Positions 25,529 through 58,045 of a stretch of 64,000 nucleotides of DNA are shown here, piece after piece. The notes under the pieces are model-generated. The model was not told where the DNA came from. It ran no database searches and saw nothing but the letters and a program-made list of their open reading frames with translations. The translations under genes were made by a program, and so were the position numbers. Positions within the stretch are counted from its first letter, which is position 1; each line of letters begins with the position of its first letter. This DNA comes from Calditrichia bacterium (lineage in GTDB: Bacteria; Calditrichota; Calditrichia; RBG-13-44-9; J075), in NCBI GenBank assembly GCA_020635015.1, contig JACKAP010000006.1, positions 76,998 to 140,997 of the forward strand, in the 5' to 3' direction.

Positions 25529-25583
25529 CGTTCGAAATGACGACATTGTGTCATTCCGAGGCGCCAGCCGAGGAATCTGTAAT
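25529..25583. repeat. About 55-bp hairpin element copy 1 (GAAATGACGACATTGTGTCATTCCGAGGCGCCAGCCGAGGAATCTGTAATT)
   Basis: Near-identical to 57988-58045. Both lie upstream of a plus-strand gene. Confidence 0.8.
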
Positions 25584-25674
25584 TTTTAAAGACTTAATTC
25601 ACCGTGTAACAATTGCATGCCCCATGCGGGCAATTTTACAGCGGTTTCAGTCGCATATTCTGGCAGGAGATACC

Positions 25675-26550
25675 ATGCATCAAACATTGATTTTACTGGC
25701 AGCCGGGAGGGCTTCCCGGATGAAAAACGCCCCGGCCGGGGAAGGCGTCGCTCCCGAGGATGCGGCTCAGGCCAATTCGCTGCACAAAGGGCTGATTGGC
25801 GTGGGAGAGCAGGGACGCCCCCTGATGGATTACATACTGTATAATGCCTGGAAAGCCGGGCATCGGCGGGCGATTCTCGTGACCGGGGAGGACAACCGTC
25901 ATTTCCAGTCACGTTACGGGGCGCAGCGCCGGGGAAACCGCTTCCACGGTCTGGAAATATCATACGCCATCCAGGCGATCCCGCCCGGGCGGGAGAAGCC
26001 TTTCGGCACTGCCGATGCGCTCTGCCAGGCCCTGGAACAGTTCCCGGAACTTCAGCGGGAGGCCTTTTCCGTGTGTAATAGCGACAATCTCTATTCGGAA
26101 AAAGCGTTCCGCCTGCTGCGGGAGACTTCCAGTCTCCATGCCTGGATCAATTACGACCGGGATGCGCTGGAATTCACGCCGGAGCGGATTGCCGGCTTTG
26201 CGGTGGCGCAGACCGACCGCGCCGGTAAGCTATTGGCAATGATTGAAAAACCGGAGGTACAAGCCCTGGAACAGTATCGTGGTGAAGACGGGAAAATACG
26301 GGTGAGCATGAATCTGTTCAAATTCAGCGGGGACGTGTTTTATCCTTATTTGCGGGATTGCCCGGTGACCCCCGGGCGGAACGAAAAGGAATTGGTAAGT
26401 GCCATCGCCCATCTTGTCGAGGATAATCCCGGCAGCATGCGGGGCATTCCGCTGGGCGAGCATGTGCCGGATTTAACCGAAAAAAAAGATATCGCCCGGG
26501 TGCGGGCGTACCTGCAGCAGCATTACGCCCGCCTGGATTGGGAGGATTAG
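25675..26550 (+). CDS. Sugar-phosphate nucleotidyltransferase family protein
   Basis: 'LILLAAGRASRM' NTP-transferase loop; ATG 25675 after a GGAGAT RBS. Confidence 0.7.
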   Translation: MHQTLILLAAGRASRMKNAPAGEGVAPEDAAQANSLHKGLIGVGEQGRPLMDYILYNAWKAGHRRAILVTGEDNRHFQSRYGAQRRGNRFHGLEISYAIQAIPPGREKPFGTADALCQALEQFPELQREAFSVCNSDNLYSEKAFRLLRETSSLHAWINYDRDALEFTPERIAGFAVAQTDRAGKLLAMIEKPEVQALEQYRGEDGKIRVSMNLFKFSGDVFYPYLRDCPVTPGRNEKELVSAIAHLVEDNPGSMRGIPLGEHVPDLTEKKDIARVRAYLQQHYARLDWED

Positions 26551-27242
26551 AATTCGCCGAGCTGTTTCTCGGCAGCTTCCAGCCGGGTCAGGTAATCTTC
26601 GTAAATCTTCAGATTCGCGTCATTGCGCACCGGCCGGGTCTCCAGCCATTTCATCAATTGGGCTTCAGTATCTTTATACGCTTTGATCGCCTGGCGGTAG
26701 GCCTTTCCCTTTTCCGGGGAGAGCGTTTTAACCCGCTTGCTGATCTCTATTTCCCGGAAGCGCAGGAGATCTTTCAGTTGATCGATGAACATCGCCGGGG
26801 TGATTTCCTGAGCGGCGCCTAATTTCCCCAAAACGGTTTTGCCGTCGCTGTCGACGACCATATAGGTCGGAAAACCTTCCACGCCATACGCAACCCGCAG
26901 ATTCTCATTGCGCCCGACATATTTCGCCGGCACGATATTCGGGTTGCGGGGAAAGTCCAGGGTGACCAACACCATCTCCCGGCGGGCGAATTCCTGCCAT
27001 TGGGTCTGGGAGAAAACGCTGCGATCCATCAGTTTGCACCAGCCGCACCAATCAGAACCGGTAAAGTTCAGCAGCACGGGAAGCTGTTTCTCGCCGGCCA
27101 GTTTTAAGGCGGCATCATAGTCCATGGTCCACTCACCGACTTTGGCACCTTCTTTGGCAACCTGATTGGCCTGCAGCGTGCTTGCCAGTAATAAGAGCAC
27201 ATTCAAGATGATTAGCAGGGATGACACTTTCCGGATATGCAT
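26547..27242 (-). CDS. Secreted thioredoxin-fold protein (thiol:disulfide oxidoreductase-like)
   Basis: Signal peptide and a 'DWCGWCK' CxxC motif. Confidence 0.8.
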   Translation of the reverse strand: MHIRKVSSLLIILNVLLLLASTLQANQVAKEGAKVGEWTMDYDAALKLAGEKQLPVLLNFTGSDWCGWCKLMDRSVFSQTQWQEFARREMVLVTLDFPRNPNIVPAKYVGRNENLRVAYGVEGFPTYMVVDSDGKTVLGKLGAAQEITPAMFIDQLKDLLRFREIEISKRVKTLSPEKGKAYRQAIKAYKDTEAQLMKWLETRPVRNDANLKIYEDYLTRLEAAEKQLGEF

Positions 27243-27403
27243 GATGACCTTCCTTTTCTCAAACTTGTGGTTTGACCGATTATGGCGATCAGCTTAAAAA
27301 TTACGCCGGATCGGCGATTGAATCAATCGAAAAAACCCTTTTTCATCTATTGGATGAACGAGCGTGCGAAAAGTGACATCATGCTGGAAATTGGCGAGAC
27401 GGC

Positions 27404-27600
27404 ATAAAAAAAGCCCGCCGGACAGTTTGCCCGACGGGCCCCTCCTTTAAAAACCCGTTGTACGGTCCCTCTTCCGGCCAACGGCGTTTTCTAAAAATTG
27501 CCCGCCAGTGTCGCCACCTTTGGGCTTTCCCTCCTTAAGGGAACAAATCGCGAGGTAACTGGAGGATGTAAACCGTCCAGTTACCTCCTCCCTCGATGCA
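27404..27600 (-). ncRNA. Candidate structured small RNA or leader ending in a minus-strand intrinsic terminator
   Basis: Perfect 12-bp hairpin GAGGTAACTGGA/TCCAGTTACCTC (27554-27590), a CCGTTG...CAACGG hairpin, and GCCCGTCGGGCAAACTGTCCGGCGGGC followed by T7 on the minus strand (27404-27439). No coding ORF is present. Confidence 0.25.
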
Positions 27601-27767
27601 GGCAGGACCTGCAATACAATGTATTCGATAATTCCGCTTGGATAATATACCAGTTATGATTAGTATCTCCTGTCTTATCGCTAACCGTCTACTATATTGT
27701 TCTGTTGCAGCGGCTGAATATTGAATTTTTTTTGAAAAAAATAAAAATTTTGAACCAGCTTTAAAGG

Positions 27768-28316
27768 TTGCACATGACGCCGAGACAAAATCGATCCGAT
27801 CAGCCGGCAAATCCGGAGGTGGAAAAGCAAGTGGAGGCGCTGCTGGGTTTGAAGGAGCAGATAAGAGATGTGGTGAATTATCACATCTGGAATAAAGATA
27901 ACCGGGAAGATATCCTGCAAGAGATTATCGCGGCCGCTATCACCAGCATCCGCAACGGTAATTTTAATCCCGAGGCCGGGGTGAAATTTACGACCTATGT
28001 CTTTAAAATCGTTAGAAATAAGATCACCGACTATATCAAGTCTCAGACAAAAATCCGGGATAATGAGGTGCCCGGACTGGATATTGATCTATTCCCCGAC
28101 GATCCGGATACCCTATCTGAAGAGGATATGGAGGAATTGCGGGAAGCGCTAAGCGACATGTTGAAGCCATTAAAACCGAAATACCGCGAGATACTGAGGC
28201 TGCGATTTATTGAAGGGCTTTCGATCGAAGCAATCAGCAAAATTCTCGATTTACCGCCCCGGAGAGTCAGCGAACGCATTCATTATGCGATTCAAAAGAT
28301 CCGTAAAAAAAAGTAA
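27768..28316 (+). CDS. ECF-type RNA polymerase sigma-70 factor
   Basis: Region 2 'FTTYVFKIVRNKITDYI' and region 4 'REILRLRFIEGLSIEAISKIL'. Confidence 0.85.
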   Translation: MHMTPRQNRSDQPANPEVEKQVEALLGLKEQIRDVVNYHIWNKDNREDILQEIIAAAITSIRNGNFNPEAGVKFTTYVFKIVRNKITDYIKSQTKIRDNEVPGLDIDLFPDDPDTLSEEDMEELREALSDMLKPLKPKYREILRLRFIEGLSIEAISKILDLPPRRVSERIHYAIQKIRKKK

Positions 28317-28373
28317 AAAAAATCAATATAAGCCCTCATTTTTAGAATAATTATTCGGGAGGGAGTTAAATTT

Positions 28374-29270
28374 ATGCCATGCCATTTAAAAGATCGTGAT
28401 AAAATTATCAGCCGCTACCTGTTGCATGAGCTTAGCGAAGCAGAAGCGATGGAGTTCCAGGCGCACTTTTTCGAATGTGAGGAGTGTTTTCAAGAAATTA
28501 CTTTCAAGCGGAAAGCGTTGCGCTTGTTTCATGACCGCGGTGAAGAAATACTGGAATCCATCGAAACGGAGCCGGAGCCAGAGTTGGATCGAGCGACGCG
28601 TGGATTCTTTGCGCGCTACCGGCCGCATTTCGCTACAGCCGCAGCAGTGTTGATCGTGATGGCGTTGGTCATCCAGTTTACCCCATTGCTGGAAAAACCG
28701 GCTGACCAACAATGGCAGCGGGATATGAAGGTGCCTTATGAATATCGTCCGGGCGACAGTTTCCGCTCTGCCGGTACGCCTAGCGCAAAAAGTACGGCCG
28801 ATTCCCTGGCGGGTCAATTGCAGCGGGGGATAAACCGTTCGATGGGGGCCTATAATCAACCGAATTATGCGCTGATGCTCCAGAATATGGCGCAGTTGGA
28901 GGCGGCCGCAGCGCACTTGCGCGGGCAGCTATCTGCCCAGGATACCGCTGCCGCCATGATCCTGCGCGATTATGAATTCTATTACGGGGTCAGCAGGCTG
29001 GCCCGGGCGCGCACCCAAATAACCGACCTGGATCCGAAATACCGGGAACAGTTGCTCCAGGAAGCGGTCACGAACATCTCCCTGGCCTTAGATCTGGCCG
29101 TGGTTTATGGAAAAACCGATACCGATAAAGAACATTATTTCCTGGGGCTGGCGTACGGCTTTTCCGGTCAATTTTCCCGGGCCGTGGAGGCGCTGGAGAA
29201 GGTTACAGACGTTTCCAACCCGCAGTTTGACAGCCTCGCATCATTCCTCAAATTATGGAAAAACCGTTGA
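28374..29270 (+). CDS. Anti-sigma factor (zf-HC2 zinc finger, single TM, periplasmic helical domain)
   Basis: 'HFFECEECFQE' zinc finger and TM 'AAAVLIVMALVIQF'. It lies directly downstream of the ECF sigma gene. Confidence 0.7.
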   Translation: MPCHLKDRDKIISRYLLHELSEAEAMEFQAHFFECEECFQEITFKRKALRLFHDRGEEILESIETEPEPELDRATRGFFARYRPHFATAAAVLIVMALVIQFTPLLEKPADQQWQRDMKVPYEYRPGDSFRSAGTPSAKSTADSLAGQLQRGINRSMGAYNQPNYALMLQNMAQLEAAAAHLRGQLSAQDTAAAMILRDYEFYYGVSRLARARTQITDLDPKYREQLLQEAVTNISLALDLAVVYGKTDTDKEHYFLGLAYGFSGQFSRAVEALEKVTDVSNPQFDSLASFLKLWKNR

Positions 29271-29495
29271 AGCCTCGCCAACCGATCTTTCCTGGCCGGC
29301 GAGGCCGGTGAATTCGCTCCAGATAGTTGATGCGGTCTCGGGCCGCCGCAACGACTGCAACCGATGAGATTGATCCTCCGCCGTAATCCAGCGCCAAGTC
29401 GACTTAAATCCATCCCTGGATTTGAAAGGCAATATTCGTATATTTTCCGAAGTCAACAACATCTCAACTGCCGGATAGATTACTTCGGGGGCTTT

Positions 29496-32400
29496 GTGAA
29501 AACGAACCTTTTCGAAATTAAGAGAGTGCTTTATCCGTTGATGCTGGTCGCTGGAATAAGCACATTGTTTGCTCAGGAACCCGGGCAGTATGAGCCCGAC
29601 CCTGCTGATCTGTCCCGCCTTTATACCTTCATGGAAACCATCGCCCGGGATTCGGTCGAAGTGCAGATCCGCGCTTACCGCCAATTTGTCACCGATCATC
29701 CGGAGCAGGAGCGGGCCTGCTGGCATTTGCTGGATTTTATGGTGATGGGCGGCCAACTGGAGGAGGCCCGGGATTTCTTTCAGGAGCAGGCGCTCGTTCC
29801 GGCAGGACGGCGCAACAGCCTCTGGATGCTGGCCCGGATCTACGCCCTGGAGGGCAATGCCGCTGCCGCCTTGCAAACCTACCGGGAAGTCTTTCAAAAC
29901 GGAGCGGCCTCCTTTGTGCTGCTGGATGATTTTGCCCTGTTTATCGTCCAAAACAAACTCGACCTGGAAAGTGAAATCGCGCAGTTGTCGATATCATCTG
30001 CCCAGCAAGCGATGATCCGAGTGGAAGTGTTGCGCCGGCGCGGTGAGGTCGAGAGGGTCCTGACCGTGCTTCAGGAAACGCTCCCCGACTATCAAACCAA
30101 CAAGTATTTGCTCCATCTCGCCGCCTACTGTCATCTCAACTCCGGAGACGAGGCCAGCGCGCTGCGTCTTCTGGAAAAAGGTCTTGGGATTGCCCGCGCA
30201 GAGAATGACCGGTTTATGACCGCCTATTACCTGACCATGATGGCGAATGTTGCCGGGGGCAATCGCGGAAAGGCCTATTGGGAAGAGGCCCGCAAGATTT
30301 CCGAAGGTCTTGCCAACCTGCGCCTGTCTATCAATGTCTATGTTGCCAGTTCCTTCGCGCTGGAGGATAAACAAGCTGCTCTGGGCTATATGGAACGGGC
30401 GATTGAAATTGCTACCGCTATCCGAAGCACACCGGAGATCGTATCGGCCTGGCTGTTGAAGGCCCAGCTGGAATCAGATCTGGAAAATTATAACGAGGCC
30501 CTGGATGCGTTTGTGCGGACGGAACAATATCTTGCTCAAGATGGCAATGAGGTTCACCGCTACGATTTTTACCTGGCCCGGGGAAGGTTCTTTCATAAAC
30601 TGCAACTAAACCAATGGGCCCGGAAGGATTACGAAACGGCCTATGAGTGGGCCCGGCAGAATGGCATGCTTTCCTACAACTATCTCGCACTCTCGCGTCT
30701 GGCCGATATCACCCTGAAAGAAAAAGAATATGAACGTGCCATTGTCCTGTACCGGGATTTCTTGAACCTGCACGCATCGAAGGTGCGTGTGTCCAACCGG
30801 GTTTATTGGCGCTATAAATTGGCGGAAGCATACCAGGCACAACATAAATATGCCGAAGCCCAGCAGCAGTTCGCCCGGGTTTACCAAGCGGCAGATCAAA
30901 TTCCGTTTCCGGTGTATAAAGAGCGGATGAAAGCGTATGCCCTGATACAGCAGGTCGCTATTCTGGCGGATCAGGAGGATCTGAAAGGCGCAAGCCGCCT
31001 GCTTAACAACGATGATCTCCGCCAGGTGTCGAAAGACCAGCAGGATGTCAAGATTGCTTATTTGATGATGCAGGGGCGGTTGTATCAACAAAAAGAGGAG
31101 ACAGACAGCGCGATCGTATGCCTGGAGGAGGCATCGAGAATTATCGAGGCGCAGCGCGGGCAACTGAAAGCGGAGGACCTGCGGGTAGGGTTTTTCAGTG
31201 ATAAAAGCAAGGTATATGATGAGCTGGTCAGTTGTTACTGGCAGCGCTATCGGCATGAATCCCAGCCGGAGGATCTGGAGCAAATTTACACTGCGCTGGA
31301 AATGCGCCGGGCACGGGTACTGCGTGATCTCAAATTTTCCGGGAATAAAAATCTCCGGAGGCAATCCAAAGATCCCTTGTATCAAAAATATCATGCGGCC
31401 TGTAATAGACTTCAAGCGCTTCAGCGCAGGATCCGGTTGAACCCCGGGCTTTATAGTGACTTGCAGCTCCAGTTAAAAACCGCCCGCCAGCAGGTAATCA
31501 ATACCCGGCTTCATTTGCTGAATCAATACGGATCGGCGGCTGTAGAGCAGCAGAAACCGCGACTGGATGAACTGGTCAGCGCCATGCAGTTACGGCAGAT
31601 GAGTCTGCTGTTTTACTGTATCGCCGAAAACGAGGCGTTTGTGCTGGTGGTGAACCGGGGGGAGCCCCGGGTGATCGCTCTGGATGCAAAGCTGGCGACC
31701 ATCGATTCCAAGGTGGATTCCCTGCTCCGGCCGCTGCACGAAATGCCGCCGGGTGGAATGGTAGGAATCCCATTCCGTGCGAAACTGGCCAACGAGTTAT
31801 ATCAGATCCTGATCGCGCCGGTTAAAGCGCAGGTCGACCTGGAGGAACAGGTGATGATCATCCCCGACCTGGCACTGGCCGGGCTGCCCTTTGATATACT
31901 GCTGAGCCAGATGCCCTCCCGGGAAGTTTATACCCCGGCCGATCCGGATACCGATTACCGCGATTCCTTTCTGCTGCATCAGCATGCAATCCTCTATGCG
32001 CCCAGTTCCTGGGTGGTACGCTCCGCTTCCAGCGCCGCCGTTGATTCCAGCGCCATACTGCTGCTGGCCAATCCCTTCTCGAATGATTTGTCACGCCCAT
32101 CGGAAAATGCGCTGCCGGTGAACCGGCAGCTTGAATATTTTGAACCCCTGATTTATGCCGATTACGAAGCGCAGATGATCAAAAGCCGTTGCGAGCAGGT
32201 GGAGGTCTTCCAGCACCAGCAGGCCACGCTCAAGGTGATTGATTCCCTCGGCAGCCGGTATGGGGTGCATCATTATTCGACGCACAGCTTTATCGATAAC
32301 GAGTTTGGGGCGTTTTCCGGCCTGTTTTTTGCCCTGAGTGATGATTCAACCGACGATGGCCTGCTGACGGTTTATAAGATTGCCGATCTGGAACTGAATT

Positions 32401-36214: not shown

Positions 36215-36235
36215 CCCAAACTCCTGCTTTTTTTG

Positions 36236-36470
36236 TCCACGGATTACACGGATGAGACAGATGTTATGCACTCACGGCTGAAAACATGATTTATGCTGTC
36301 ATTGCGAGGCGTTTTTTCCGAAGCAATCTCCCGCAAGGTGCAACCATCTGCAGTTAAATTGTAAGCGATCCGCATGAGATTGCCGCGCCGCACGCTACGC
36401 GGCTCGCAATGACAGCACCCGATGACGACCTGAGTTTCATTTAATCCGTGAAAATCCGTGTAATCCGTGG
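36236..36470. repeat. Nested long-range palindromes: outer 17-bp arms CCACGGATTACACGGAT / ATCCGTGTAATCCGTGG, inner 15-bp arms TGCTGTCATTGCGAG / CTCGCAATGACAGCA
   Basis: Seen directly. The inner arm resembles the TGTCATTCCGAGG hairpin family (25529, 57988). Confidence 0.75.
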
Positions 36471-36526
36471 ACCGATTTTCTTCTATCGTTTAAATACTCC
36501 CGCCCTCCGCACTCCGCACTCCACCC

Positions 36527-37903
36527 TCAGCCCTTCGCGCTTCGCCCTTTGCCATCTTTTTCCAGCCAGGGCGGCAGCGCTTCCAACTGCTGCACGTATT
36601 CGGTGTTTTCCGCCTGGCGGATGACGGCAATGCTTTTATCCTCACCGATCATCACCACATTGGGACGGAGGTGGATGAACTGCATCCATTGGGTGTTGTT
36701 GTAGGCCCCGACCGGAGAGATCACCACCTGGTCGCCTTTCTCCAGGTAGGGCATCTGGATGGTGTTGCAGATCTCATCGATCTGCATGCACAGCGGTCCG
36801 TAGATGTGATGAGCCTCCTGATTCAACTGGGCTTTATTCTCCGCCGGCAGGATGGTATGGTCGTACCAAAAGGAGGTGAACAGCAGATTGACCCCGGCGT
36901 CCAACACCAGCATGCGCATGCCGCTGTTCATGCGCTTGGTGGCGACCACCTGGGCGATCAGGAAGGCCGACTCATCCACCAGCCCCCGCCCGGTCTCCAG
37001 GAAGAGGGTGGGCAACTGCGCTGCCGGGAAGGCGTTGAGCAGCTCCGCGGTGATCGCCTCGGCATACTGGTCGAAGGAGGGGATGGTCTGGTAGGCCGCC
37101 GGGTAGATCGACGCCTTGAGCTTGTTGTGCGAGGCGAAGCCGCCTCCGATATCGATATAGCGGATCTTGATGCTCTCTGCCTGCTGGATCTGCTGAACAA
37201 AGCCGATCAGCTTGCGCACCTGTTCGCGGTAAACCTCGGCGTTGAGCACAAAGGTGCCGATATGGGAATGGATCCCCACCAGGCGCAGCCACTTGCTGGC
37301 GGCGATCCTCCGTGCCGCCTCGAAGGCCTGCCCGCTCTCCATGTTGAGGCCAAATCGATCCCACGACTGCAAAGTAGAGAGGTTCATATTGACCCGCATG
37401 CCGATCTCGACTTCCCGGCCGAGGTCCTCGGCAATCTGTTCGATCTCGTAAATTTCATCGAAGCTGTCGATGTTGATCATCGCTCCATCCTGAACCGCGA
37501 TTTGCAGTCCGCGAGGCGACTTGTACGGTCCGTTGAAGATGATCCGGTTGCCGGGATTGCCCATCTTGCGGGCCAGTTCATATTCCCATTCCGAGACCAC
37601 CTCCGCCCAGGCGCCGAGCTGGTGATAGCTCCGGCATACCGCCTGCAGATAGTTGGTCTTGTAGCTCCAGGCGAAATGTACTTTGGGATATCGTTTAGAG
37701 AAAGCCCGGTAGGCATTCTGGAAGATCTCCTTCAGCCGCGGGTAGGAATAGACAAAGAGCGGGGAGCCGTAGGCGGCGGTCAACTCGCTGACCGGGATGC
37801 CTTCGATATTGTCCTGAAAGCCGCTGGTCTGCGGTGTGCCGAATTTGCTGGTAATGCCCATTTGCCGCCGCGATATCGCCGGTTTTTGATAGGTCTTTTT
37901 CAT
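36527..37903 (-). CDS. Fold-type III PLP-dependent decarboxylase (Orn/DAP/Arg decarboxylase family 2; LysA/BtrK-like)
   Basis: PLP-Lys context 'FAWSYKTNY', 'IDIGGGFAS' and C-terminal 'GPLCMQIDEI'. Its start overlaps the ATP-grasp stop by 4 nt. Confidence 0.8.
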   Translation of the reverse strand: MKKTYQKPAISRRQMGITSKFGTPQTSGFQDNIEGIPVSELTAAYGSPLFVYSYPRLKEIFQNAYRAFSKRYPKVHFAWSYKTNYLQAVCRSYHQLGAWAEVVSEWEYELARKMGNPGNRIIFNGPYKSPRGLQIAVQDGAMINIDSFDEIYEIEQIAEDLGREVEIGMRVNMNLSTLQSWDRFGLNMESGQAFEAARRIAASKWLRLVGIHSHIGTFVLNAEVYREQVRKLIGFVQQIQQAESIKIRYIDIGGGFASHNKLKASIYPAAYQTIPSFDQYAEAITAELLNAFPAAQLPTLFLETGRGLVDESAFLIAQVVATKRMNSGMRMLVLDAGVNLLFTSFWYDHTILPAENKAQLNQEAHHIYGPLCMQIDEICNTIQMPYLEKGDQVVISPVGAYNNTQWMQFIHLRPNVVMIGEDKSIAVIRQAENTEYVQQLEALPPWLEKDGKGRSAKG

Positions 37904-42765: not shown

Positions 42766-42964
42766 CTCCGGCTCTCAGCTTGTGCGATCGAATAGTGAAT
42801 TGCAAACTGGCATTAATCCAACTTTATTATGATGCTGGATACTGGATGCTGGATACAAGATTGGGTCGAGCATCCAGCGTCTTCGGATGTATAGATCGTT
42901 ACCATTCGCATTGTAATATACCGGATTTAATCGCGGTACTCCATCATTGATACATTTTGTTCGC

Positions 42965-43369
42965 GGTTGATGGGTTAATGGGGAAAAGGATAAAGGATAA
43001 AGGATAAAGGATAAAGGATAAAGGTTGAAGATACTGGATACTGGATACTGGATAAAATAAAAATGCTTGTTCAGGTGTGAAAATCGGGTTCATTTAAGCA
43101 TCCAGCATCCAGCATCCAGCATCCAGCATCCAGCATCCAGCATCCAGCATCCAGCATCCAGCATCCAGCATCCAACATCCAACATCCAGCATCCAACATA
43201 TACTCATCAGACAAAGCCATCCGCAAAAACTTGCAAATTTCCTATTGACCTGACCCGATCCCTTCAACATATTTCCGCCGCAATGAAAAATCAACCCATC
43301 AACCCATCAACCCATCAACCCATCAACCCATCAACCGATCAACCCATTAACCCATCAACCCATCAACCC
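42965..43369. repeat. IR-L: composite heptamer block (GGATAAA)5-(ATACTGG)3-unique core-(GCATCCA)12-(ACATCCA)-(CCATCAA)9 running up to the S9 peptidase start codon
   Basis: Seen directly. Its first 200 bp or so are the reverse complement of 45296-45545. Confidence 0.9.
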
Positions 43370-45295
43370 ATGAAAACATTACCCTATGGCACCTGGCCAT
43401 CACCGATTACCGCCGATCTCATCGCTGCCGCCGGGCGGCGGCTGGGCGATATCGCCGTCGATGGAGATTCGGTTTACTGGATCGAAAGTCGCCCGGAGCA
43501 GGAGGGGCGCAATACCATCATGATGTGGAACCCCGGCGGGGAGTTTCGGGAAGTTACCCCGCCGCCTTTTAATGTGCGCTCCCGGGCCCATGAATACGGC
43601 GGCGGCGCTATGGCGGTGTATGGCGGCCGGGTGTTCTTTGTGAACGATGCAGATCGCCAGATCTATCACATTCCTCCCGGCGGATCCCCGCAGGCGCTGA
43701 CCAGCGAATCCGATACCGCCTATGCCGATATGATCCTCGATCCGGCGCGCCAGCGGCTGATCCTGGTGCAGGAGCATTATTTTGATGACAGCCGCCCGCC
43801 CCGCGACATGCTGGCCGTGCTTTCCCTGCGCGGCCGCCCGGGATATTGTGAGCCGCTGGTGAGCGGGAACGATTTCTATGCCAGTCCCGCCCTGAGCCGC
43901 GACGGCCGGCAGCTTTGCTGGCTGAGCTGGGACCATCCGGCAATGCCCTGGAACGGTACTGAATTATGGGTGGCGGAGGTAGGGGATGACGGTCAACTGC
44001 GCCGCCGGCGCCGGATTGCCGGAGGCGCGCAGGAGTCGGTGTTCCAGCCGCAATGGGGTACAGACGGCACCCTGTATTTTGCTTCCGACCGCAGGGAGGG
44101 CTGGTGGAACCTCCATGCCTGGGATGGGCACACCATCCGGCCGGTGCTGGAGATGGCTGCGGAGTTCGCCTTGCCCCAGTGGGTTTTCGGAATGTCGACC
44201 TATTGTATTTTGAATGAGCGTTGTATCGCCGCTGCGTACACCCGGGAGGGGCGCTGGGAGATGGGGCTGATCGATCCGCAGCGCGGTGATCTGGAGGCCC
44301 TGGCGCTGCCCTTTAGCTATATTACCCAGGTTCGCGGCGCCGGGGAGCGGATCGCTTTTGTCGGCGCTGCGCCGGATGCAGCGGAGGCGGTTTATACCCT
44401 GGAACTGCCGTCGCAGCACCTGCAGATGTTGCGGAAATCCAGCGATCTGGAGGTGGATGCCGGCTATATTTCCACCCCGCAGGCAGTGAGTTTTGAAAGT
44501 GATGGCGAGGAGGTGCACGGCTTTTTCTATCCTCCCAGCAATCGCGATTTCAGCGCTCCGGAGGACGAAAAACCTCCGCTGATCGTATTCATTCACGGCG
44601 GTCCCACGGCGGCGGCGAACAGCGGATTGGATCTTCGCAAACAATTTTGGACCAGCCGCGGCTTTGCGGTGCTCGACGTCAACTACCGGGGCAGCACCGG
44701 CTATGGGCGGGCGTACCGGGAAAGCCTCAACGGCCGTTGGGGGGTGGCCGATGTGCAGGATTGCGTCAACGGCGCCCGGCGTCTGGCGGCGCAGCAGCAG
44801 GCGGATCCGGAAAGGCTGCTGATCCGCGGCGGCAGCGCCGGGGGATTCACCGCCCTGGCGGCGCTGACTTTTCACGATTGTTTCCGGGCCGGGGCGAGCT
44901 ATTATGGCATCAGCGATCTGGAAGCGCTGGAGCAGGAGACCCACAAGTTTGAATCGCGCTACAATCATCAATTGATCGCCCCCTATCCCGCCGGTAAGCC
45001 AGTCTACCGCGAACGCTCGCCGCTGCACCATGCCGGGGATCTGAACCGCCCGGTGATCTTCCTGCAGGGCCTGGAGGATCGGGTGGTGCCCCCCGGTCAG
45101 GCGGAAAGAATGGCCCACGCCCTGCGTAAACGCGGCGTGCCGGTGGCTTATCTTACCTTTGAGGGCGAAGGGCACGGCTTCCGCAAGCCGGAAACCATCC
45201 GCCGCGCCCTGGAAGCGGAGTTGTTCTTTTATGGAAGGGTGCTGGGATTCGAGCCCGGGGAGAAGCTTGATCCGGTGCAGATAGATAATTTGTGA
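43370..45295 (+). CDS. S9 family serine peptidase (acylaminoacyl-peptidase / dipeptidyl-aminopeptidase-like beta-propeller + alpha/beta-hydrolase)
   Basis: Nucleophile elbow 'GGSAGG' and a C-terminal 'HGF' His. The true start is ATG 43370 (MKTLPYGTWPSP); the upstream 100 codons of the listed ORF translate heptamer repeats (SIQHPAS..., QPINPST...). Confidence 0.85.
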   Translation: MKTLPYGTWPSPITADLIAAAGRRLGDIAVDGDSVYWIESRPEQEGRNTIMMWNPGGEFREVTPPPFNVRSRAHEYGGGAMAVYGGRVFFVNDADRQIYHIPPGGSPQALTSESDTAYADMILDPARQRLILVQEHYFDDSRPPRDMLAVLSLRGRPGYCEPLVSGNDFYASPALSRDGRQLCWLSWDHPAMPWNGTELWVAEVGDDGQLRRRRRIAGGAQESVFQPQWGTDGTLYFASDRREGWWNLHAWDGHTIRPVLEMAAEFALPQWVFGMSTYCILNERCIAAAYTREGRWEMGLIDPQRGDLEALALPFSYITQVRGAGERIAFVGAAPDAAEAVYTLELPSQHLQMLRKSSDLEVDAGYISTPQAVSFESDGEEVHGFFYPPSNRDFSAPEDEKPPLIVFIHGGPTAAANSGLDLRKQFWTSRGFAVLDVNYRGSTGYGRAYRESLNGRWGVADVQDCVNGARRLAAQQQADPERLLIRGGSAGGFTALAALTFHDCFRAGASYYGISDLEALEQETHKFESRYNHQLIAPYPAGKPVYRERSPLHHAGDLNRPVIFLQGLEDRVVPPGQAERMAHALRKRGVPVAYLTFEGEGHGFRKPETIRRALEAELFFYGRVLGFEPGEKLDPVQIDNL

Positions 45296-45545
45296 GTGGA
45301 TGGGTGGATGGGTTGATGAGTGGATGGGTGGATGGGTTAATGGGTTGAGATGCTGGATGCTGGATGCTGGATGCTGGATGCTGGATGCTGAAATGAACCC
45401 GATTTTCGCACCCGAACAAGCATTTTTATTTTACCCAGTATCCAGCACCTTCAACCTTTATCCTTTATCCTTTATCCTTTACCCTTTATCCTTTATCCTT
45501 TATCCTTTTCCCCATTCACCCATCAACAAGCAATCGCAAAACCAC
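45296..45545. repeat. IR-R: inverted copy of the IR-L composite heptamer block
   Basis: Its reverse complement reads ttgatgggtgaatggggaaaaggataaagg...ggttgaaggtgctggatactgggtaaaataaaaatgcttgttcgggtgcgaaaatcgggttcatttcagcatccagcatccagc..., over 90% identical to 42969-43160. Confidence 0.9.
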
Positions 45546-46826: not shown

Positions 46827-46924
46827 TTGCATGGGGCATGGGGCATGGTGTATTACAGTGCGAGTGTCGACGTATACGCTAGCACATGACGGCGCCATGC
46901 GCTTTGCCCTTTGCCCCATGCAAA
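46827..46924. repeat. MITE-like palindromic element copy 1 (TTGCATGGGGCATGGGG ... CCCCATGCAA)
   Basis: Terminal inverted repeats GCATGGGGCATGGGG / CCCCATGC with an internal TATTACAGTGCG core. Copies are at 52773-52856 and 58702-58798. Confidence 0.85.
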
Positions 46925-49127: not shown

Positions 49128-49478
49128 ATGAGCATTCAGAAACCGCCGAAAAAACTCTATTATTCGCTGCGTCAAACCGCCTCCATGACCGGTTTGAGTG
49201 TCGCCGTGCTTAAAAATTGGGAGAAAGAATTTCCCGAAGTTCAGCCCGCCCGCAATCGCGCCGGCAACCGCCATTATACCGATAGCGACTTGACCCTCCT
49301 CTTCCGCATCAAGGAATTACTTTTGGAAAAAAAGTTGTCTCCGGAGGAAATTCACACCCGCCTGCGCAGCCATCCGGCCCAGCCCGCTCCGGAAGTGGCC
49401 GACGTGGTGCGCCTGAAAAAAGTGCTGGCGGAGATCAAGCTGGAGATCGAGGAAATATTGCTGCTGTTGCGGGAGTAG
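49128..49478 (+). CDS. MerR-family transcriptional regulator
   Basis: HTH 'YYSLRQTASMTGLSVAVLKNWEKEF' and a C-terminal coiled-coil. Confidence 0.75.
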   Translation: MSIQKPPKKLYYSLRQTASMTGLSVAVLKNWEKEFPEVQPARNRAGNRHYTDSDLTLLFRIKELLLEKKLSPEEIHTRLRSHPAQPAPEVADVVRLKKVLAEIKLEIEEILLLLRE

Positions 49479-49604
49479 GGGGGACGAAGGGTGAAGGATG
49501 AAGGATGAAGGATGAAGGATGAAGGATGAAGGATGAAGGATGAAGGATGAAGGATAAAGGATAAAGGATGAAGGATAAAGGATGAAGGATGAAGGATGAA
49601 GGAT
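49479..49604. repeat. (GGATGAA/GGATAAA)n heptamer tract, about 17 units
   Basis: gggggacgaagggtgaaggatgaaggatgaagg...ggataaaggatgaaggataaaggatgaagg. Confidence 0.9.
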
Positions 49605-49970
49605 ATGTCGGAACGTAAATCGCCACGACTCAGTGGAGGCATCCAAAAATTTTGGGAAGAGCGGGAGCAGTTGAATGAAACCGTGCTGAAAAATGCCGGC
49701 CTCACCACCCGGCGTTTTTTCAGTCTGGATCATCAGGCCTACCAGGAAGGCGCTCTGCCGGTCAAGACCAAGGAACTGCTGGGCCTGGTCGCCTCGCTGG
49801 TGCTGCGCTGCGACGATTGCATCTCCTATCATCTGGTGCGCTGCCGGGAAGAAGGGGTGAGCGCGGCAGAATTGGAAGAGGCGCTGTCGATCGGGCTGGT
49901 CGTGGGAGGCTCTATCACCATTCCCCATCTCCGCCGGGCCTTCCGCGCCTGGGAGGAGATGGAAGGCTAG
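49605..49970 (+). CDS. Carboxymuconolactone decarboxylase/AhpD-like family protein
   Basis: 'LVLRCDDCISYH' AhpD-core CxxC..H motif. Confidence 0.7.
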   Translation: MSERKSPRLSGGIQKFWEEREQLNETVLKNAGLTTRRFFSLDHQAYQEGALPVKTKELLGLVASLVLRCDDCISYHLVRCREEGVSAAELEEALSIGLVVGGSITIPHLRRAFRAWEEMEG

Positions 49971-49991
49971 CGCCGCACGCACCCTAGGGCT

Positions 49992-52772: not shown

Positions 52773-52856
52773 TTGCATGGGGCATGGGGTATTACAGTGC
52801 GGGTCTCGGAATATGCGCTTGCGCATTACGGCGCCATGCCCTATGCCCCATGCAAA
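52773..52856. repeat. MITE-like palindromic element copy 2
   Basis: ttgcatggggcatggggtattacagtgcgggtctcggaatatgcgcttgcgcattacggcgccatgccctatgccccatgcaa. Confidence 0.85.
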
Positions 52857-53422: not shown

Positions 53423-53425
53423 GGG

Positions 53426-53478
53426 GGTTATAGATTGCGGTTATTGGCAACAACACCCAATAACCGCAATCTATAACC
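53426..53478. terminator. Perfect palindrome with 22-bp arms (GGTTATAGATTGCGGTTATTGG / CCAATAACCGCAATCTATAACC) immediately after marR
   Basis: Seen directly; no clear U-tract, so this may be a bidirectional terminator or a protein-binding dyad. Confidence 0.45.
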
Positions 53479-53576
53479 AAATGCCAAAGACTAAAGACCA
53501 AGAGCTAAATGTTTGAAAGACATATTTTATAGTAACCAAACAAATATCACCATAAATCAATCTAAGGAGTTGTATC

Positions 53577-54185
53577 ATGAAAAAGTATTTTGCAGTGTTG
53601 TTGGTTTTCGCCTTGACCGGGTTGGGAGGCAGCTTGTTGGCCCAGACTTACACCGTTGATGTAGAGAATAGCAAACTGGCCTGGGAAGGTGAAAAAGTGA
53701 CCGGTAAGCATCATGGAATTATCAATATTCAATCCGGGCAACTTTCCCGTGACGGTGAAAGCCTGAGCGGCGAATTCACGATTGACATGAATTCGATCGT
53801 TGACTTCGACCTGGAAGACCCGCAGTGGAACCAGAAACTGGTCGGTCATCTGAAGTCGGATGATTTCTTCTCGGTGGACAAGCATCCGGTCTCCACTTTC
53901 AAGATTACCAATGTCGCCGAATATGAAGCCAAAGAAGGGGAGAAGGCAACCCACACCATTACTGGCGATCTGACCATCAAAGGGATCACCCATCAGATTT
54001 CCTTCCCGGCCTATGTCAATTTCAACGGGGAAACCGTGGTGGCCGAAGCGAACTTCGCGATCGATCGCACCAAGTGGGATATCCGCTTCCGTTCCGGCAG
54101 CTTCTTCGAGAACCTGGGCGACAAGCTGATCTACGACGACATCAAATTCGAACTGAATCTGACCGGTGCTAAGGCCGAAAGCTAA
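53577..54185 (+). CDS. YceI-family periplasmic protein
   Basis: Signal peptide; 'KVTGKHHGI' and 'ITGDLTIKGITHQISFPAYVNF' match YceI-like. Confidence 0.8.
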   Translation: MKKYFAVLLVFALTGLGGSLLAQTYTVDVENSKLAWEGEKVTGKHHGIINIQSGQLSRDGESLSGEFTIDMNSIVDFDLEDPQWNQKLVGHLKSDDFFSVDKHPVSTFKITNVAEYEAKEGEKATHTITGDLTIKGITHQISFPAYVNFNGETVVAEANFAIDRTKWDIRFRSGSFFENLGDKLIYDDIKFELNLTGAKAES

Positions 54186-54202
54186 GGATCACCGGTTCAA
54201 GT

Positions 54203-54241
54203 AAGGCGGCCAGTATTTTGTTTTATAAGTCTGGCCGCCTT
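54203..54241 (+). terminator. Stem-loop AAGGCGGCCAG(n17)CTGGCCGCCTT downstream of the yceI-like gene
   Basis: 11-bp perfect stem with a U-rich loop. Confidence 0.4.
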
Positions 54242-54315
54242 ATGAATTATGACGGCTATAAGCTAATAAATCAGTTTTTCTTTACAATTATATTTAGCAT
54301 TTTTTTGGCAATATT

Positions 54316-55023
54316 ATGAAAATACTATACATATATCCCCATCCCGATGATGAATCCTTTGGCCCCGGCCATGTGATGGCGAAACAGGTGCGCGATGGCC
54401 ACGAGGTATACTTGCTGACCCTCACCAAAGGAGGCGCCACCCGGCAGCGGTTTAAATACAATCATACGATCGCTGAGATGGGGGAGGTGCGTTACCGGGA
54501 AATGCTGAATGTCGCCAGGACGTTAAATCTCACCGGCATGACCGTGCTGGACCTGCCCGACAGCGGATTGAAGGAGATGGATCCCCGGGAGATCGAAAAA
54601 GTGGTTGCTGCCGAGATCGAGCGGCTGCAGCCGGCAGTGGTGGTGACCTATGCGGTTCACGGTATCAGCGGCTTTCACGATCATCTGGTGACCCATGCAG
54701 TAGTAAAAAGAGTTTTTGTGGATTTAAAGGAAAGAACAAATTATCTTAGACGGTTGGCAATGGTAACACTCACCGAAGCTGATGCGAGTATGGGAACGAT
54801 GTTTAAGCTGAATCATTCCAAGCCTGAGGAAATCGACTGCATCGTGACGGTGGAAGATGCCGACATCAAAAGCTGCCATGCAGCCCTGGATTGCTATACG
54901 ACATTTCAGGAAACGATCGAGAAATCCGGCATCAAATCATTCATTAAGCACCAGGCGGTGTTTGAAATTTTTCAGGAAGATCACAAGCCGCCGCTGACCG
55001 ATCTCTTTGATCATTTGTCCTGA
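54316..55023 (+). CDS. PIG-L/LmbE family N-acetylglucosaminyl deacetylase
   Basis: 'ILYIYPHPDDESFG' and 'HGISGFHDHLVTH' motifs. Confidence 0.8.
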   Translation: MKILYIYPHPDDESFGPGHVMAKQVRDGHEVYLLTLTKGGATRQRFKYNHTIAEMGEVRYREMLNVARTLNLTGMTVLDLPDSGLKEMDPREIEKVVAAEIERLQPAVVVTYAVHGISGFHDHLVTHAVVKRVFVDLKERTNYLRRLAMVTLTEADASMGTMFKLNHSKPEEIDCIVTVEDADIKSCHAALDCYTTFQETIEKSGIKSFIKHQAVFEIFQEDHKPPLTDLFDHLS

Positions 55024-55140
55024 GCATGATCACGCTGCTGCGGTTCGCTAAATCATTGAACCGGGCTGCTGGTAGGCGTGATGTCTTTACATGCATCCGG
55101 GGGAAGTGGCATTTTCTTTAAATCCAGGAGGGTTGCAGCA

Positions 55141-55707
55141 ATGAAATCGTGCACAAGCGTCCGGGCGATGATGAGTGGGGTATTCATTTCGTTGGTGACC
55201 ATGTGCGCCTGCGCGCCATTAAACTCGGAACGGGAGGACGGTCGAAGTTATACCCCGCCTCCGAAGCCGAAGCAAACGACGACGGTTAAAGCTGATACTT
55301 CCGGTCAGAACGGGCCGGTAATCGGGCCGCCGCTGCCGCCGTCTTATAAAAAACCGGAAAACCCCAAGCCCAAAGCCGTAACACCCGCGCCGAAAGCGGA
55401 GAAGGTCTATTATGGGAAGGCGGTTTATATCGACAATCAGCTGCACGGCCGGCCGACGGCCAGTGGCGAGCGTTACGACCGCACCAAATTTACTGCCGCC
55501 CATATTTTTTTGCCGTTTGGCACCATCTGCCGGGTAACCAACCTGGCCAACGGAAGGACCGTCAATGTGCGGATCAATGACCGCTGCAAGAATGTCGACA
55601 ATCGGGTGATCGACCTCTCTTACGCCGCAGCGGAGGAATTGGACGCGATTCTGGCGGGGGTCATCAATGTAAAAATTGAAGTGGTTAAAGAAGTGGAGTA
55701 TCCGTGA
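55141..55707 (+). CDS. RlpA-like (DPBB) lipoprotein
   Basis: Lipobox 'LVTMCAC', a Pro-rich linker and DPBB 'GKAVYID...TASGERYD...FGTICRVTNLANGRTVNVRINDR'. Confidence 0.7.
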   Translation: MKSCTSVRAMMSGVFISLVTMCACAPLNSEREDGRSYTPPPKPKQTTTVKADTSGQNGPVIGPPLPPSYKKPENPKPKAVTPAPKAEKVYYGKAVYIDNQLHGRPTASGERYDRTKFTAAHIFLPFGTICRVTNLANGRTVNVRINDRCKNVDNRVIDLSYAAAEELDAILAGVINVKIEVVKEVEYP

Positions 55708-55708
55708 G

Positions 55709-57028
55709 GTGAAAACCGCCTGTATCATCGGCGCCGGCGCCTCCGGTATTACCGCCGCGAAAACCTTCCGGGAGCAGGGAATTGATTTTGACTGCTTTGA
55801 GAAAGGTTCCGGTATCGGCGGCAACTGGCGCTACGGAAACGACAACGGGATGTCTTCCGCCTACCGCTCCCTGCATATCATCTCCAGCAAGTGGAACATG
55901 CAGTATTCCGATTATCCCATGCCGGAAGATTTTCCCGACTACGGCCATCACAGCGATGTACTGCGTTATTTCGAGAATTATGTCGATCACTTTGGCATTC
56001 GCGAGACCATCCGCTTTCATTGCGAAGTGAAAGAGGTGACGCCGCACTCCCGGGATGGCTGGGAGGTGACCCTCGCAGGGGGCGAGCGCCGGAACTATCG
56101 TGCGGTGGTGGTGGCCAACGGCCATCACTGGAATCCCCGCTGGCCGGAATTTCCCGGAAGCTTTCACGGAGAAGCAATCCATTCTCATCATTATAAAACG
56201 CCCGAGGCCTTTGAAGACAAAAATGTGCTGATCGTCGGGATCGGAAATTCCGCCTGCGATATTGCGGTCGACCTCTCCCGCCTGGCCCGCACGGTGCATC
56301 TTTCTACCCGGCGCAGCGCCTATGTGCTTCCGAAATATGTGCTGGGAATTCCCAATGATCAATGGCTTCATCCGCTGTTCGATTATTTCCCGCTGGCCCT
56401 GCGTCGCACCGCCTTCCGGATATTGGCCTACATGACCGTTGGTAACCAGGAGCGCTACGGCCTGCCCCGGCCCCGCCACAAATTGTTGCAGGAGCATCCC
56501 ACTCTGAATCAGGAATTTTTGTCCTACGTGGGACACGGGCGGATCAAGATCAAACCGGATATCCGCGAACTGCAGGGGGAACGGGTGGGGTTCGTCGACG
56601 GCAGCAGTGAACCGTTCGATACGATCATTTATGCCACCGGCTATAACATCACCTTTCCGTTTCTGAAGCCGGAAGTGTTTACGGTGCAGGACAACCGGGT
56701 ACACCTTTACCGGCGGGTGATCGATCCGGAATTGCCCAACTTGTTCTTCCTGGGGCTGATCCAGCCCCTCGGGGCGATCATGCCCCTGGCGGAGTTGCAG
56801 GCCCGCTGGATCGCCGGGCTGCTGAACGGCGAGATGGCCCTGCCGGACGAAGGGCGGATGCGCCGCGATATCGAGGCCGATCGTTCCCTCCTGCGCCGCC
56901 GCTACACCGACTCCGCCCGCCATACCATCCAGGTGGATTTTTGGGATTATGTGCACCAACTGAAGCGGGAAATGCGGAAAGGGAAGAAGCTTGCTGATAG
57001 GAAAAGGAGGATGAAGGGTGAAGGATAA
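55709..57028 (+). CDS. Flavin-containing monooxygenase (FMO family)
   Basis: 'KTACIIGAGASGITAAK' FAD site and 'VLIVGIGNSACDIAVDL' NADPH site. GTG 55709 is preferred, after GGAG and 2 nt past the upstream stop. Confidence 0.8.
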   Translation: MKTACIIGAGASGITAAKTFREQGIDFDCFEKGSGIGGNWRYGNDNGMSSAYRSLHIISSKWNMQYSDYPMPEDFPDYGHHSDVLRYFENYVDHFGIRETIRFHCEVKEVTPHSRDGWEVTLAGGERRNYRAVVVANGHHWNPRWPEFPGSFHGEAIHSHHYKTPEAFEDKNVLIVGIGNSACDIAVDLSRLARTVHLSTRRSAYVLPKYVLGIPNDQWLHPLFDYFPLALRRTAFRILAYMTVGNQERYGLPRPRHKLLQEHPTLNQEFLSYVGHGRIKIKPDIRELQGERVGFVDGSSEPFDTIIYATGYNITFPFLKPEVFTVQDNRVHLYRRVIDPELPNLFFLGLIQPLGAIMPLAELQARWIAGLLNGEMALPDEGRMRRDIEADRSLLRRRYTDSARHTIQVDFWDYVHQLKREMRKGKKLADRKRRMKGEG

Positions 57029-57175
57029 AGGGCAAAGGATAAAGGGCAAAGGATAAAGGAATAACCTTGATTGACATTGGGACTGGATTTTGTTCTGTTT
57101 CAGCATCCAGCATCCAGCATCCAGTACAACCCATCAACCCATTTACAAAAGAAAAACATCCACCATATCATACAC
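57008..57175. repeat. Composite heptamer block (GGATAAA/GGGCAAA)n-spacer with TTGACA-(GCATCCA)3-(CCATCAA)2 upstream of the SDR gene
   Basis: Same modular order as the IR-L block upstream of the S9 peptidase. Confidence 0.85.
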
Positions 57176-57946
57176 ATGCAACCAAAAACCATCTTCATCA
57201 CCGGCGCCGCTTCCGGGATCGGAGCGGCTACTGCCCGCAAGTTTCACGCGCAGGGCTGGTTTGTAGGTTTATATGATCTGAATCCCGCTCCGCTGGCTGA
57301 GTTGCAGCGCTCCCTGGGCACGGAAAACAGCTGCTTCATGGCCTTGGATGTACGCGACCGGGAGGCGGTGGCAGCGGCGATGGACCACTTCGGGGCGCAC
57401 AGCGGGGGGAGGATGAACCTGCTGTTCAACTGTGCCGGGATCATCGGCATCGGCCCCTTCGAGGACCTCCGGCTGGAAGATCACCTGCGTACGGCGGAGG
57501 TGAATTTTCAGGGGGTGCTCAACTGCACGTTTCTGGCTTTTCCGTTGCTGAAAGCAACTCCCGGCGCGCGGGTGGTCAGCATGTCCTCCGCCTCGGCCCG
57601 CTACGGCACGCCGGACTTTGCCAGCTACTCGGCCAGCAAATTCGCGGTGCGCGGCCTAACCGAAGCGCTGAATATCGAATGGCGCCGGCATGGCATCGTG
57701 GTCAGCGACATCATGCCTCCATTCGTTAATACCCCGATGATCCAGAGCGGGCCGGCCAGCAAGAGTTTCGAGCGGATGGGCATCCGTCTCAGGCCGGAGC
57801 AGGTGGCTGAGGTGGTCTGGAAAGCCGCCCGGGGAAACAAGGTGCACTATCCGGTCGGTTTGCAGTTCAAACTGCTCAACGCCCTCTCGGCCGTTTCGCC
57901 TGACTGGCTGACCCGCCGGGTGATGCGCTGGATTGGGGGATATTAG
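57176..57946 (+). CDS. Short-chain dehydrogenase/reductase (SDR)
   Basis: 'IFITGAASGIGAATA' and 'YSASKFAVRGL' (YxxxK). ATG 57176; upstream codons of the listed ORF translate repeats. Confidence 0.85.
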   Translation: MQPKTIFITGAASGIGAATARKFHAQGWFVGLYDLNPAPLAELQRSLGTENSCFMALDVRDREAVAAAMDHFGAHSGGRMNLLFNCAGIIGIGPFEDLRLEDHLRTAEVNFQGVLNCTFLAFPLLKATPGARVVSMSSASARYGTPDFASYSASKFAVRGLTEALNIEWRRHGIVVSDIMPPFVNTPMIQSGPASKSFERMGIRLRPEQVAEVVWKAARGNKVHYPVGLQFKLLNALSAVSPDWLTRRVMRWIGGY

Positions 57947-57976
57947 TGTGCGCTACCCGGGCTTTCGCAAGAACAG

Positions 57977-58045
57977 ATTCCTCACTTCGTTCGGAATGAC
58001 AGCACAAATGTCATTCCGAAGGCGCCAGCCGAGGAATCTGTAATT
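57977..58045. repeat. About 55-bp hairpin element copy 2, with outer arms CAGATTCCTC / GAGGAATCTG and inner arms GGAATGACA / TGTCATTCC
   Basis: aacagattcctcacttcgttcggaatgacagcacaaatgtcattccgaaggcgccagccgaggaatctgtaatt, 37 bp upstream of the kefG start. Confidence 0.85.

Follow-up and report, generated by a model that had tools for sequence, protein, structure and literature searches.

The repeats considered here lie in a 64,000-nucleotide stretch of a Calditrichia bacterium metagenome-assembled genome (MAG; assembly GCA_020635015.1, contig JACKAP010000006.1, positions 76,998 to 140,997; hereafter 'the window', meaning this whole stretch), and two described groups of tagged hairpin elements come closest to them. 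The first is the CGTC-tagged repetitive extragenic palindromic (REP) superfamily (Di Nocera 2013, BMC Genomics 14:522, PMC3733652). Its members begin with an unpaired CGTC or TGTC (or CCTC) tag, have a stem of 8-9 bp that opens with A-T and T-A pairs and closes on a loop of 4-5 nt, and end in an unpaired 3-nt tail with the consensus CCA. These REPs include dRS3 of Neisseria and RPE-4 and RPE-6 of Rickettsia, and are found in Chlorobi and Bacteroidetes, among others, with five phyla listed. They have no dedicated transposase, and they frequently form inverted pairs, in which inward-facing tags are the rarer layout. The second group comprises the meningococcal NTS, which reads CGTCATTCCCGCG..GCGGGAATCYRG, and the motifs like it, termed SRM (Chenal 2025, Nat Commun 16:2388, PMC11893778). 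SsnA, a 94-amino-acid single-domain GIY-YIG nuclease, binds NTS and cuts it a few nucleotides 5′ of the tag; its substrate is exclusively single-stranded DNA (ssDNA), and one strand only. The 3 nucleotides preceding the NTS palindrome control cleavage, the C after the palindrome controls SsnA binding, and ssn genes, whose products are single-domain proteins of the cd10448/PF01541 type, are usually flanked by SRM.

We found that the window contains six copies of one oriented hairpin unit of about 30 nt, with each site consisting of an inverted pair of this unit. It is likely (we estimate a probability of roughly 0.7) that these units belong to the CGTC-tagged REP superfamily, or NTS-SRM class, and are ssDNA sites of Ssn nucleases. 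The elements are of an already known kind; what is new is their presence in the phylum Calditrichota and a form of the hairpin that is interrupted by GA. A structure-aware scan gave the layout of the unit as (C/T)GTC, ATTCC, GA, a variable mini-hairpin, GA, GGAAT and C. The 5′ tag, (C/T)GTC, is unpaired, the stem has 5 bp and opens with A-T and T-A pairs, GA opposite GA forms a tandem G.A/A.G mismatch, and the variable inner mini-hairpin often has a GNA triloop. The C immediately 3′ of the stem is followed by TG or TC. All six units read (C/T)GTCAT at their start and ...AATC at their end. A covariance model (R1), trained on foreign examples only and run unfiltered over the whole window, returned exactly six units, in three intergenic pairs at 25.5, 36.3 and 58.0 kb. 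Its other matches were weak (E > 0.2) and include four core-only matches at an array near 12.3 kb, which is described further below. The units and the inverted repeats around them are as follows.

25481..25498, no strand: left arm of the outer inverted repeat of pair 1, TTACGCTGTGAATTAAGT (DNA fold)
25508..25546, minus strand: unit 1A, diverged, cGTC-ATTTC-GA-ACGTAGTTTGT-GA-GAAAT-C-ta (R1 30.2 bits, E 1e-5; structure scan)
25545..25582, plus strand: unit 1B, tGTC-ATTCC-GA-GGCGCCAGCC-GA-GGAAT-C-tg (R1 31.5 bits, E 4e-6; structure scan)
25592..25609, no strand: right arm of the outer inverted repeat of pair 1, ACTTAATTCACCGTGTAA (DNA fold)
36235..36253, no strand: left outer arm of pair 3, GTCCACGGATTACACGGAT (read from the sequence)
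36293..36333, plus strand: unit 3A, tGTC-ATTGC-GA-GGCGTTTTTTCC-GAA-GCAAT-C-tc (R1 17.0 bits, E 0.03; sequence)
36373..36418, minus strand: unit 3B, tGTC-ATTGC-GA-GCCGCGTAGCGTGCGGC-GCG-GCAAT-C-tc (R1 14.2 bits, E 0.16; sequence)
36454..36472, no strand: right outer arm of pair 3, ATCCGTGTAATCCGTGGAC (read from the sequence)
57971..58005, minus strand: unit 2A, tGTC-ATTCC-GA-ACGAAGT-GA-GGAAT-C-tg (R1 49.6 bits, E 8e-11)
58005..58043, plus strand: unit 2B, tGTC-ATTCC-GA-AGGCGCCAGCC-GA-GGAAT-C-tg (R1 29.0 bits, E 2e-5)

The preliminary description of this stretch, made from the sequence alone, had reported near-identical copies at 25.5 and 58.0 kb. This is true of their right-hand 44 nt, over which 25548-25584 and 58008-58045 are identical except for one additional A, and a 32-nt pattern drawn from both copies has 0.00 expected matches in the shuffled window; the left arms, on the other hand, have diverged. 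A 9-bp inverted repeat had been assigned to each copy, but the left arm of copy 1 is GAAATGACG and not GGAATGACA (7 of 9 positions match), and the left side of this copy, previously read as AGATTCCTC, is actually AGATTTCTC. The outer inverted repeat had been noted for copy 2, whereas copy 1 is also enclosed by one, formed by the arms given above, and pairs 1 and 3 each lie within such an additional, unrelated inverted repeat. The related site at 36.3 kb was correctly recognized, with TGCTGTCATTGCGAGGCG / CTCGCAATGACAGCA arms enclosed by an outer palindrome; the palindrome had been placed at 36236-36470, and we put its outer arms at the slightly different positions listed.

The units of the window differ among themselves in ways that preserve their fold. 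The stems ATTCC/GGAAT, ATTTC/GAAAT and ATTGC/GCAAT are compensatory variants of each other, with a C-G pair replaced by T-A in unit 1A and by G-C in unit 3A, while GTCAT and ATC are constant. Unit 1B folds into the 5-bp stem, the GA/GA internal loop and a GGC/GCC stem, giving ten stem positions, including the two G.A pairs, and a loop of GCCA; the inserts of the other units are longer or shorter, and that of unit 2A has the canonical 7 nt with a GAA triloop. Folded as DNA, the region of pair 1 with its outer arms (25450-25615) reaches -24.6 kcal/mol (z -4.1), and pair 2 reaches -24.3 kcal/mol (z -7.9). The tags face inwards in pairs 1 and 2, and lie outside in pair 3, whose two units are 39 nt apart.

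In comparison with the CGTC-tagged REPs, the window units share the unpaired CGTC/TGTC tag, the first stem pairs A-T and T-A, a short unpaired tail, a mostly intergenic location, frequent inverted pairs and the lack of a dedicated transposase; moreover, Chlorobi and Bacteroidetes are relatives of Calditrichota. They differ in that their tails are C-TG or C-TC instead of CCA, that 5 bp plus GA plus 2-3 bp with loops of 3-8 nt is a loose fit to the published stem and loop sizes, and that Calditrichota is outside the five listed phyla. With NTS and SRM they share a 5′ HGTC tag directly before a hairpin that opens with W-Y (A, T), a C right after the palindrome, and a semi-palindrome of 20-50 nt that forms a hairpin whose pairing has been kept in evolution. 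Both are oriented, and hence strand-specific, units that are dispersed in copies numbering in the hundreds and frequently paired in inverted orientation, and, as detailed below, Ssn homologs of Bacteroidota, of Cyanobacteria and on numerous metagenome contigs have GA-type units on their flanks. Unlike NTS, the GA-type stem is broken by the tandem G.A and carries a variable inner hairpin (an insert of 4-20 nt).

Outside the window, at least 120 stretches of viral contigs match the degenerate pattern GTCATTCCGA-N4-18-GAGGAATC, and the unit-bearing viral contigs are genuine phages with terminase, portal and capsid genes. The exact 28-29-nt variant of the window had one match in a scan of genome contigs, in a Chloroflexota MAG, where it adjoins a unit with an ATCCT/AGGAT stem. 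A full-text literature search with the letter string of the repeat returned primers only. Among the matches listed, the triplets in GTCAT-NNN-GA...GA-NNN-ATC are complementary in 236 of 246 units, including 51 of the 61 units in which the original search had left the triplets unfixed. The preliminary description had put forward covariation analysis with a covariance model; besides the six units recovered in the window, an alignment of 73 units has two-sided changes at 5 of 7 pairs. In this alignment 96.9% of the cells are paired, compared with 88% in shuffles and at most 55% with slid partners. The complementary triplets, the two-sided pair changes and the compensatory stems of the window show that the hairpin structure is under selection.

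The insert within the GA mismatch varies between 4 and 20 nt, with a bimodal distribution that peaks at 7-8 and 16-18 nt. A GNA triloop is present in 54 of the 83 inserts of 7 nt, the commonest of which is GCGAAGC. Unusually stable DNA hairpins are typically marked by tandem sheared G.A pairs within a YGAR context, and d(GCGAAGC) and GNA loops were reportedly described by Hirao and Yoshizawa as DNA mini-hairpins of unusual stability. Given the known stability of such loops and their frequency here, the inner loops point to hairpins that form at the level of DNA.

The GA-type class is associated with Ssn genes in other genomes. With a consensus Ssn query we retrieved genes annotated as GIY-YIG, the ssnA locus of Neisseria among them, and GA-type units (for example GTCATCCCGAGGAACGAGGGATC and GTCATTCTGAGTGAAACGAAGAATC) flank the GIY-YIG (Ssn-family) genes of Spirosoma and Planktothrix; perfect-stem units flank those of Azospirillum and Neisseria. 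We then considered 80 metagenome loci for which the presence of an Ssn homolog was the sole selection criterion. A unit lies at most 400 nt from the gene in 55 of these loci, and in 45 of the 80 it is of the GA type. The density of units is 2.77 per kb near the gene and 0.30 per kb farther off, and the rate expected by chance is about 0.015 per kb, a figure that is our own estimate and not the output of a tool. Usually a plus-strand unit is upstream of the gene and a minus-strand unit downstream. At one of these loci, a Chitinophagaceae contig (L179), a core identical to that of unit 2A of the window adjoins the Ssn gene, whose product is MBN9351759.1. In a search for homologs of the Spirosoma Ssn protein, the best 120 were all Bacteroidota-like, with none from Calditrichota among these.

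We also observed that Ssn genes with their flanking hairpin pairs are small inserts between unrelated genes: between sufB and sufC in Azospirillum (L158, 1489-1782), between MmeI and the DISARM gene drmA in Planktothrix (L157, 1492-1776), and between two glycoside hydrolases in Spirosoma (L156, 1486-1779). Judged by this arrangement, an Ssn gene with its flanking hairpins looks like a mobile gene cassette.

The general design of the unit also resembles the classical REP and REPIN elements of E. coli and Pseudomonas, which are mobilised by RAYT, an HUH Y1 tyrosine transposase of the IS200/IS605 type (PMC6006769). In both designs a short 5′ tag precedes an imperfect hairpin, a small protein of nuclease type recognises this hairpin in ssDNA form, the protein gene is single-copy and flanked by repeats, and the repeats are dispersed, intergenic and commonly found as inverted doublets. 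However, the tag of our unit is GTC(-AT), and not the RAYT guide tetranucleotide GTAG or GTGG (PMC6006769), and Di Nocera saw no RAYT flanked by CGTC repeats (PMC3733652). Pfam annotation of the called genes revealed no Y1 transposase in the window, and the gene that was found flanked by the GA-type class encodes a GIY-YIG nuclease instead of an HUH Y1 transposase. Mobilisation by a RAYT is therefore highly improbable.

The position of the repeats relative to genes bears on two further explanations. The preliminary description proposed an operator, a small RNA or a riboswitch-like leader, which would control the nucleotidyltransferase and kefG genes, or else a REP-type element. The near-identical units are indeed on the coding strand, 92 and 37 nt before the start codons (ATG at 25675 and GTG at 58082, respectively), so that the distances given previously are correct, and pairs 1 and 2 are very stable when folded as RNA (-38.9 and -27.3 kcal/mol, with z of -8.1 and -4.9). 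However, the two genes are unrelated, and since each site has one unit on each strand, the orientation relative to the downstream gene, which had been described as the same, has no meaning. As all three sites are between co-directional genes, they could equally well be called 'downstream of a gene'.

The supposedly conserved position in 5′ regions is also not borne out by the units in foreign sequences, whose gene context we determined with crude gene calls. By these calls, 56% of the foreign units fall within the 15% of the sequence that is non-coding. The distribution of approximately 230 foreign units is independent of gene context: co-directional, convergent and divergent gaps are used roughly according to the available intergenic length, with a similar density per kb. 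Both orientations occur, with a moderate antisense bias (31 versus 13 contigs, p about 0.01), and units also sit between phage structural genes. By the criterion of orientation and position that the preliminary description itself had set, this distribution argues against a cis-regulatory role. In addition, the unit has no match in Rfam, even with the threshold relaxed to E<=10, and permissive thresholds gave chance-level matches only. The conserved features, an unpaired GTC tag and a covarying stem around a freely variable insert, do not form the pattern of a ligand pocket, and the class clusters around Ssn nuclease genes. We regard a regulatory leader or operator as extremely unlikely, and the REP-type element, which agrees with the tag, the stem, the inverted pairs and the CGTC REP definitions, is the only one of the four original options to survive.

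Several phage contigs (within loci L007-L126) have multiple units each, mostly antisense to the structural genes; examples are L033 (5775-11869), L017 (1563-7298) and L022 (720-4405).

The second explanation based on position is that the hairpins act mainly in RNA, by terminating or stabilising upstream transcripts (as terminators or by protecting mRNA 3′ ends), as has been proposed for many REPs. The structures at the three sites are between co-directional genes and begin 13-60 nt past the stop codon of the upstream gene, their hairpins are strong, and REPs are mostly downstream of open reading frames (Di Nocera, PMC3733652). Against this, no T/U tract follows the hairpins, and a terminator scan finds no terminator-like site at either of the two loci scanned. 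The frequency per kb is equally high between divergent genes, and the phage units are mostly antisense, so that a transcript would have weak U.C mismatches in place of G.A. Nor would a generic hairpin role account for an unpaired tag that never changes or for the C that trails the stem. Although a principal role in RNA is unlikely for these reasons, the RNA folds are stable enough to make a secondary effect conceivable, and the hairpins could influence read-through transcripts in this way.

Comparison of strains allowed us to assess whether the units are instead relics that have been decaying since an earlier expansion and now lack a partner or function. Unit 1A and the units at 36.3 kb are diverged and score low, and the window is without a partner gene, as such relics would be. 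However, units 1B and 2B share the 44 nt that are identical except for one A, and the diverged units retain their pairing through compensatory changes. Moreover, pair 2, including unit 2B, is unchanged in every one of the six strain contigs spanning it, pair 1 has at most 2 differing positions in the contigs spanning it, and pair 3 is unchanged in two further contigs (L153 and L154), in which only an adjacent heptamer array varies in copy number. A relic status is accordingly quite unlikely.

The strain contigs also show discontinuities at pair 1. Four independent assemblies terminate inside unit 1B, and synteny breaks in two strain variants at opposite ends of the composite palindrome 25481-25609. 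One contig (L136, around its positions 1480-1500) breaks at approximately 25486, the left end, and has a different gene upstream. In the other variant (L144/L006, positions 1-45), homology to the window begins only at approximately 25610, the right end; its upstream sequence differs from the window, and the contig runs out after 107 nt that match nothing else. This differing sequence could be an empty site. The assembly ends in unit 1B and the breaks at the ends of the palindrome fit a discrete block that is repeated or recombinogenic, which does not in itself amount to proof of mobility. In another strain contig (L001), what looks like a 155-nt insertion is a stretch of N introduced by scaffolding.

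If the six units are Ssn sites of the CGTC REP and NTS-SRM kind, they would act at the level of DNA, folding when their strand becomes single-stranded during replication, repair or DNA uptake. A single-domain GIY-YIG nuclease of the Ssn family, encoded elsewhere in the genome, would bind the folded unit in a strand-specific manner and nick it slightly 5′ of the tag, at a distance of a few nucleotides. Spreading or persisting as dispersed intergenic copies and inverted pairs, the units would have their influence on recombination and on DNA entering the cell, and not on how the gene that happens to lie next to them is expressed. If neighbouring mRNAs were affected at all, for instance by a stable hairpin in a transcript that reads through, this would be incidental. 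The restriction of binding and cutting to ssDNA, and the roles of the key bases, are presumed here by analogy with the literature on perfect-stem NTS. That the Calditrichia genome encodes an Ssn nuclease and uses these sites is likewise something we infer from the other genomes.

Several observations weigh against this assignment. The published biochemistry of Ssn covers perfect-stem NTS, and a GA-type hairpin is a presumptive Ssn substrate by extension from it. The published SRM pattern, HGTCWYN(0-2)YYVSBRHN(0-5)WNVSBRGN(0-2)RNCYNB, matches 0 of 232 GA-type units and nothing in the window, because the GA mismatch falls on its S/B positions; this pattern is, however, an operational one built from 29 genomes and not a biological definition. 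A search of the 64-kb window plus 4.7 kb beyond it for GIY-YIG proteins, by regular expression, tblastn and a hidden Markov model (HMM) in six frames, found no Ssn/GIY-YIG homolog, and Pfam annotation of the window's called genes similarly gave neither a transposase nor a GIY-YIG gene. The unit-bearing phage contigs also have no Ssn gene (1.25 Mb of unit-bearing loci; regular expression, tblastn and HMM), and when the proteins encoded at the viral loci with units were clustered, only phage structural genes emerged, with no candidate partner. The inward-facing tags of two of the three window pairs correspond to the layout called rare for CGTC REPs, and are opposite to the layout around Ssn genes. 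With six units in hand, a genome-wide copy number is an extrapolation.

A broader proposal, which we put forward tentatively and consider doubtful, is that GA-interrupted units are a large Ssn/SRM subclass across the FCB group, Cyanobacteria, Chloroflexota and tailed phages that was wholly missed by the published pattern. Under this proposal, the mostly antisense multi-copy units in phages without Ssn would reflect a phage-host conflict over ssDNA intermediates, and the nucleases would recognise a tandem-G.A hairpin whose insert is freely variable. If this is true, ssDNA tools would gain a new specificity class in the GA-type nucleases.

The assignment as a whole has several implications. It removes a false lead, namely a common regulator of the nucleotidyltransferase and kefG genes, and it extends the CGTC-REP/SRM repeats to Calditrichota. 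It also draws attention to a very common tandem-G.A form that is tied to Ssn-type GIY-YIG genes and is invisible to the published SRM pattern. Since that pattern is blind to the GA type, surveys of Ssn targets probably under-count, especially in Bacteroidota-like lineages and phages. For users of these MAGs it is relevant that the repeats break metagenome assemblies and mark points of rearrangement.

The genes around the three sites are co-directional in each case. Pair 1 is between genes for an M61 peptidase and an NTP-transferase (the nucleotidyltransferase), pair 2 is between an SDR gene and the gene for the flavodoxin-like KefG, and pair 3 is between genes for an Orn/DAP decarboxylase and a Big_7 protein, on the minus strand. 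The window also contains dnaA (15568-17037), with the gene for ribosomal protein L28 upstream, and therefore probably adjoins the chromosomal replication origin.

One further feature may be a derivative or relative of the hairpin repeat family, namely the array that gave the four core-only R1 matches.

12292..12552, no strand: possibly related array of tandem repeats of about 22 nt (repeat families D11, I6 and I20; sequence)

Each of its repeats has the core CGA-GCGAAGC-GAG, without the GTCAT and ATC ends, and the array as a whole is a long inverted repeat between convergent genes.

Two other kinds of repeat occur in the window. A dispersed intergenic repeat of about 95 nt, the third dispersed kind, is present at 46836-46923 (plus strand), 52775-52855 (plus strand) and 58704-58798 (minus strand); it reads GCATGGGGCATGGTGTATTACAGTGCGGGTGTCGG...ACGGCGCCATGCCCTATGCCCCATGCAAAAG, is bounded by inverted GCATGGG heptamers and has no credible Rfam match. 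One of its copies is just downstream of kefG. Many intergenic regions contain tandem repeats of 7-8 nt (3195-3340, 9549-9611, 36480-36530, 42957-43215, 43266-43401, 45285-45529, 49460-49634, 56980-57143 and 61759-61856), of the types AAGGATG/AAGGATA, CATCCAG, CATCAACC, GGGTGAAT and GGAGTGC, the last of which varies in copy number among strains. They resemble the STRR repeats of cyanobacteria, although here they are in a Calditrichia MAG, and they are often inverted arrays that flank a gene, as in the case of the S9 peptidase gene at 43067-45295, where the arms are 181 nt long.

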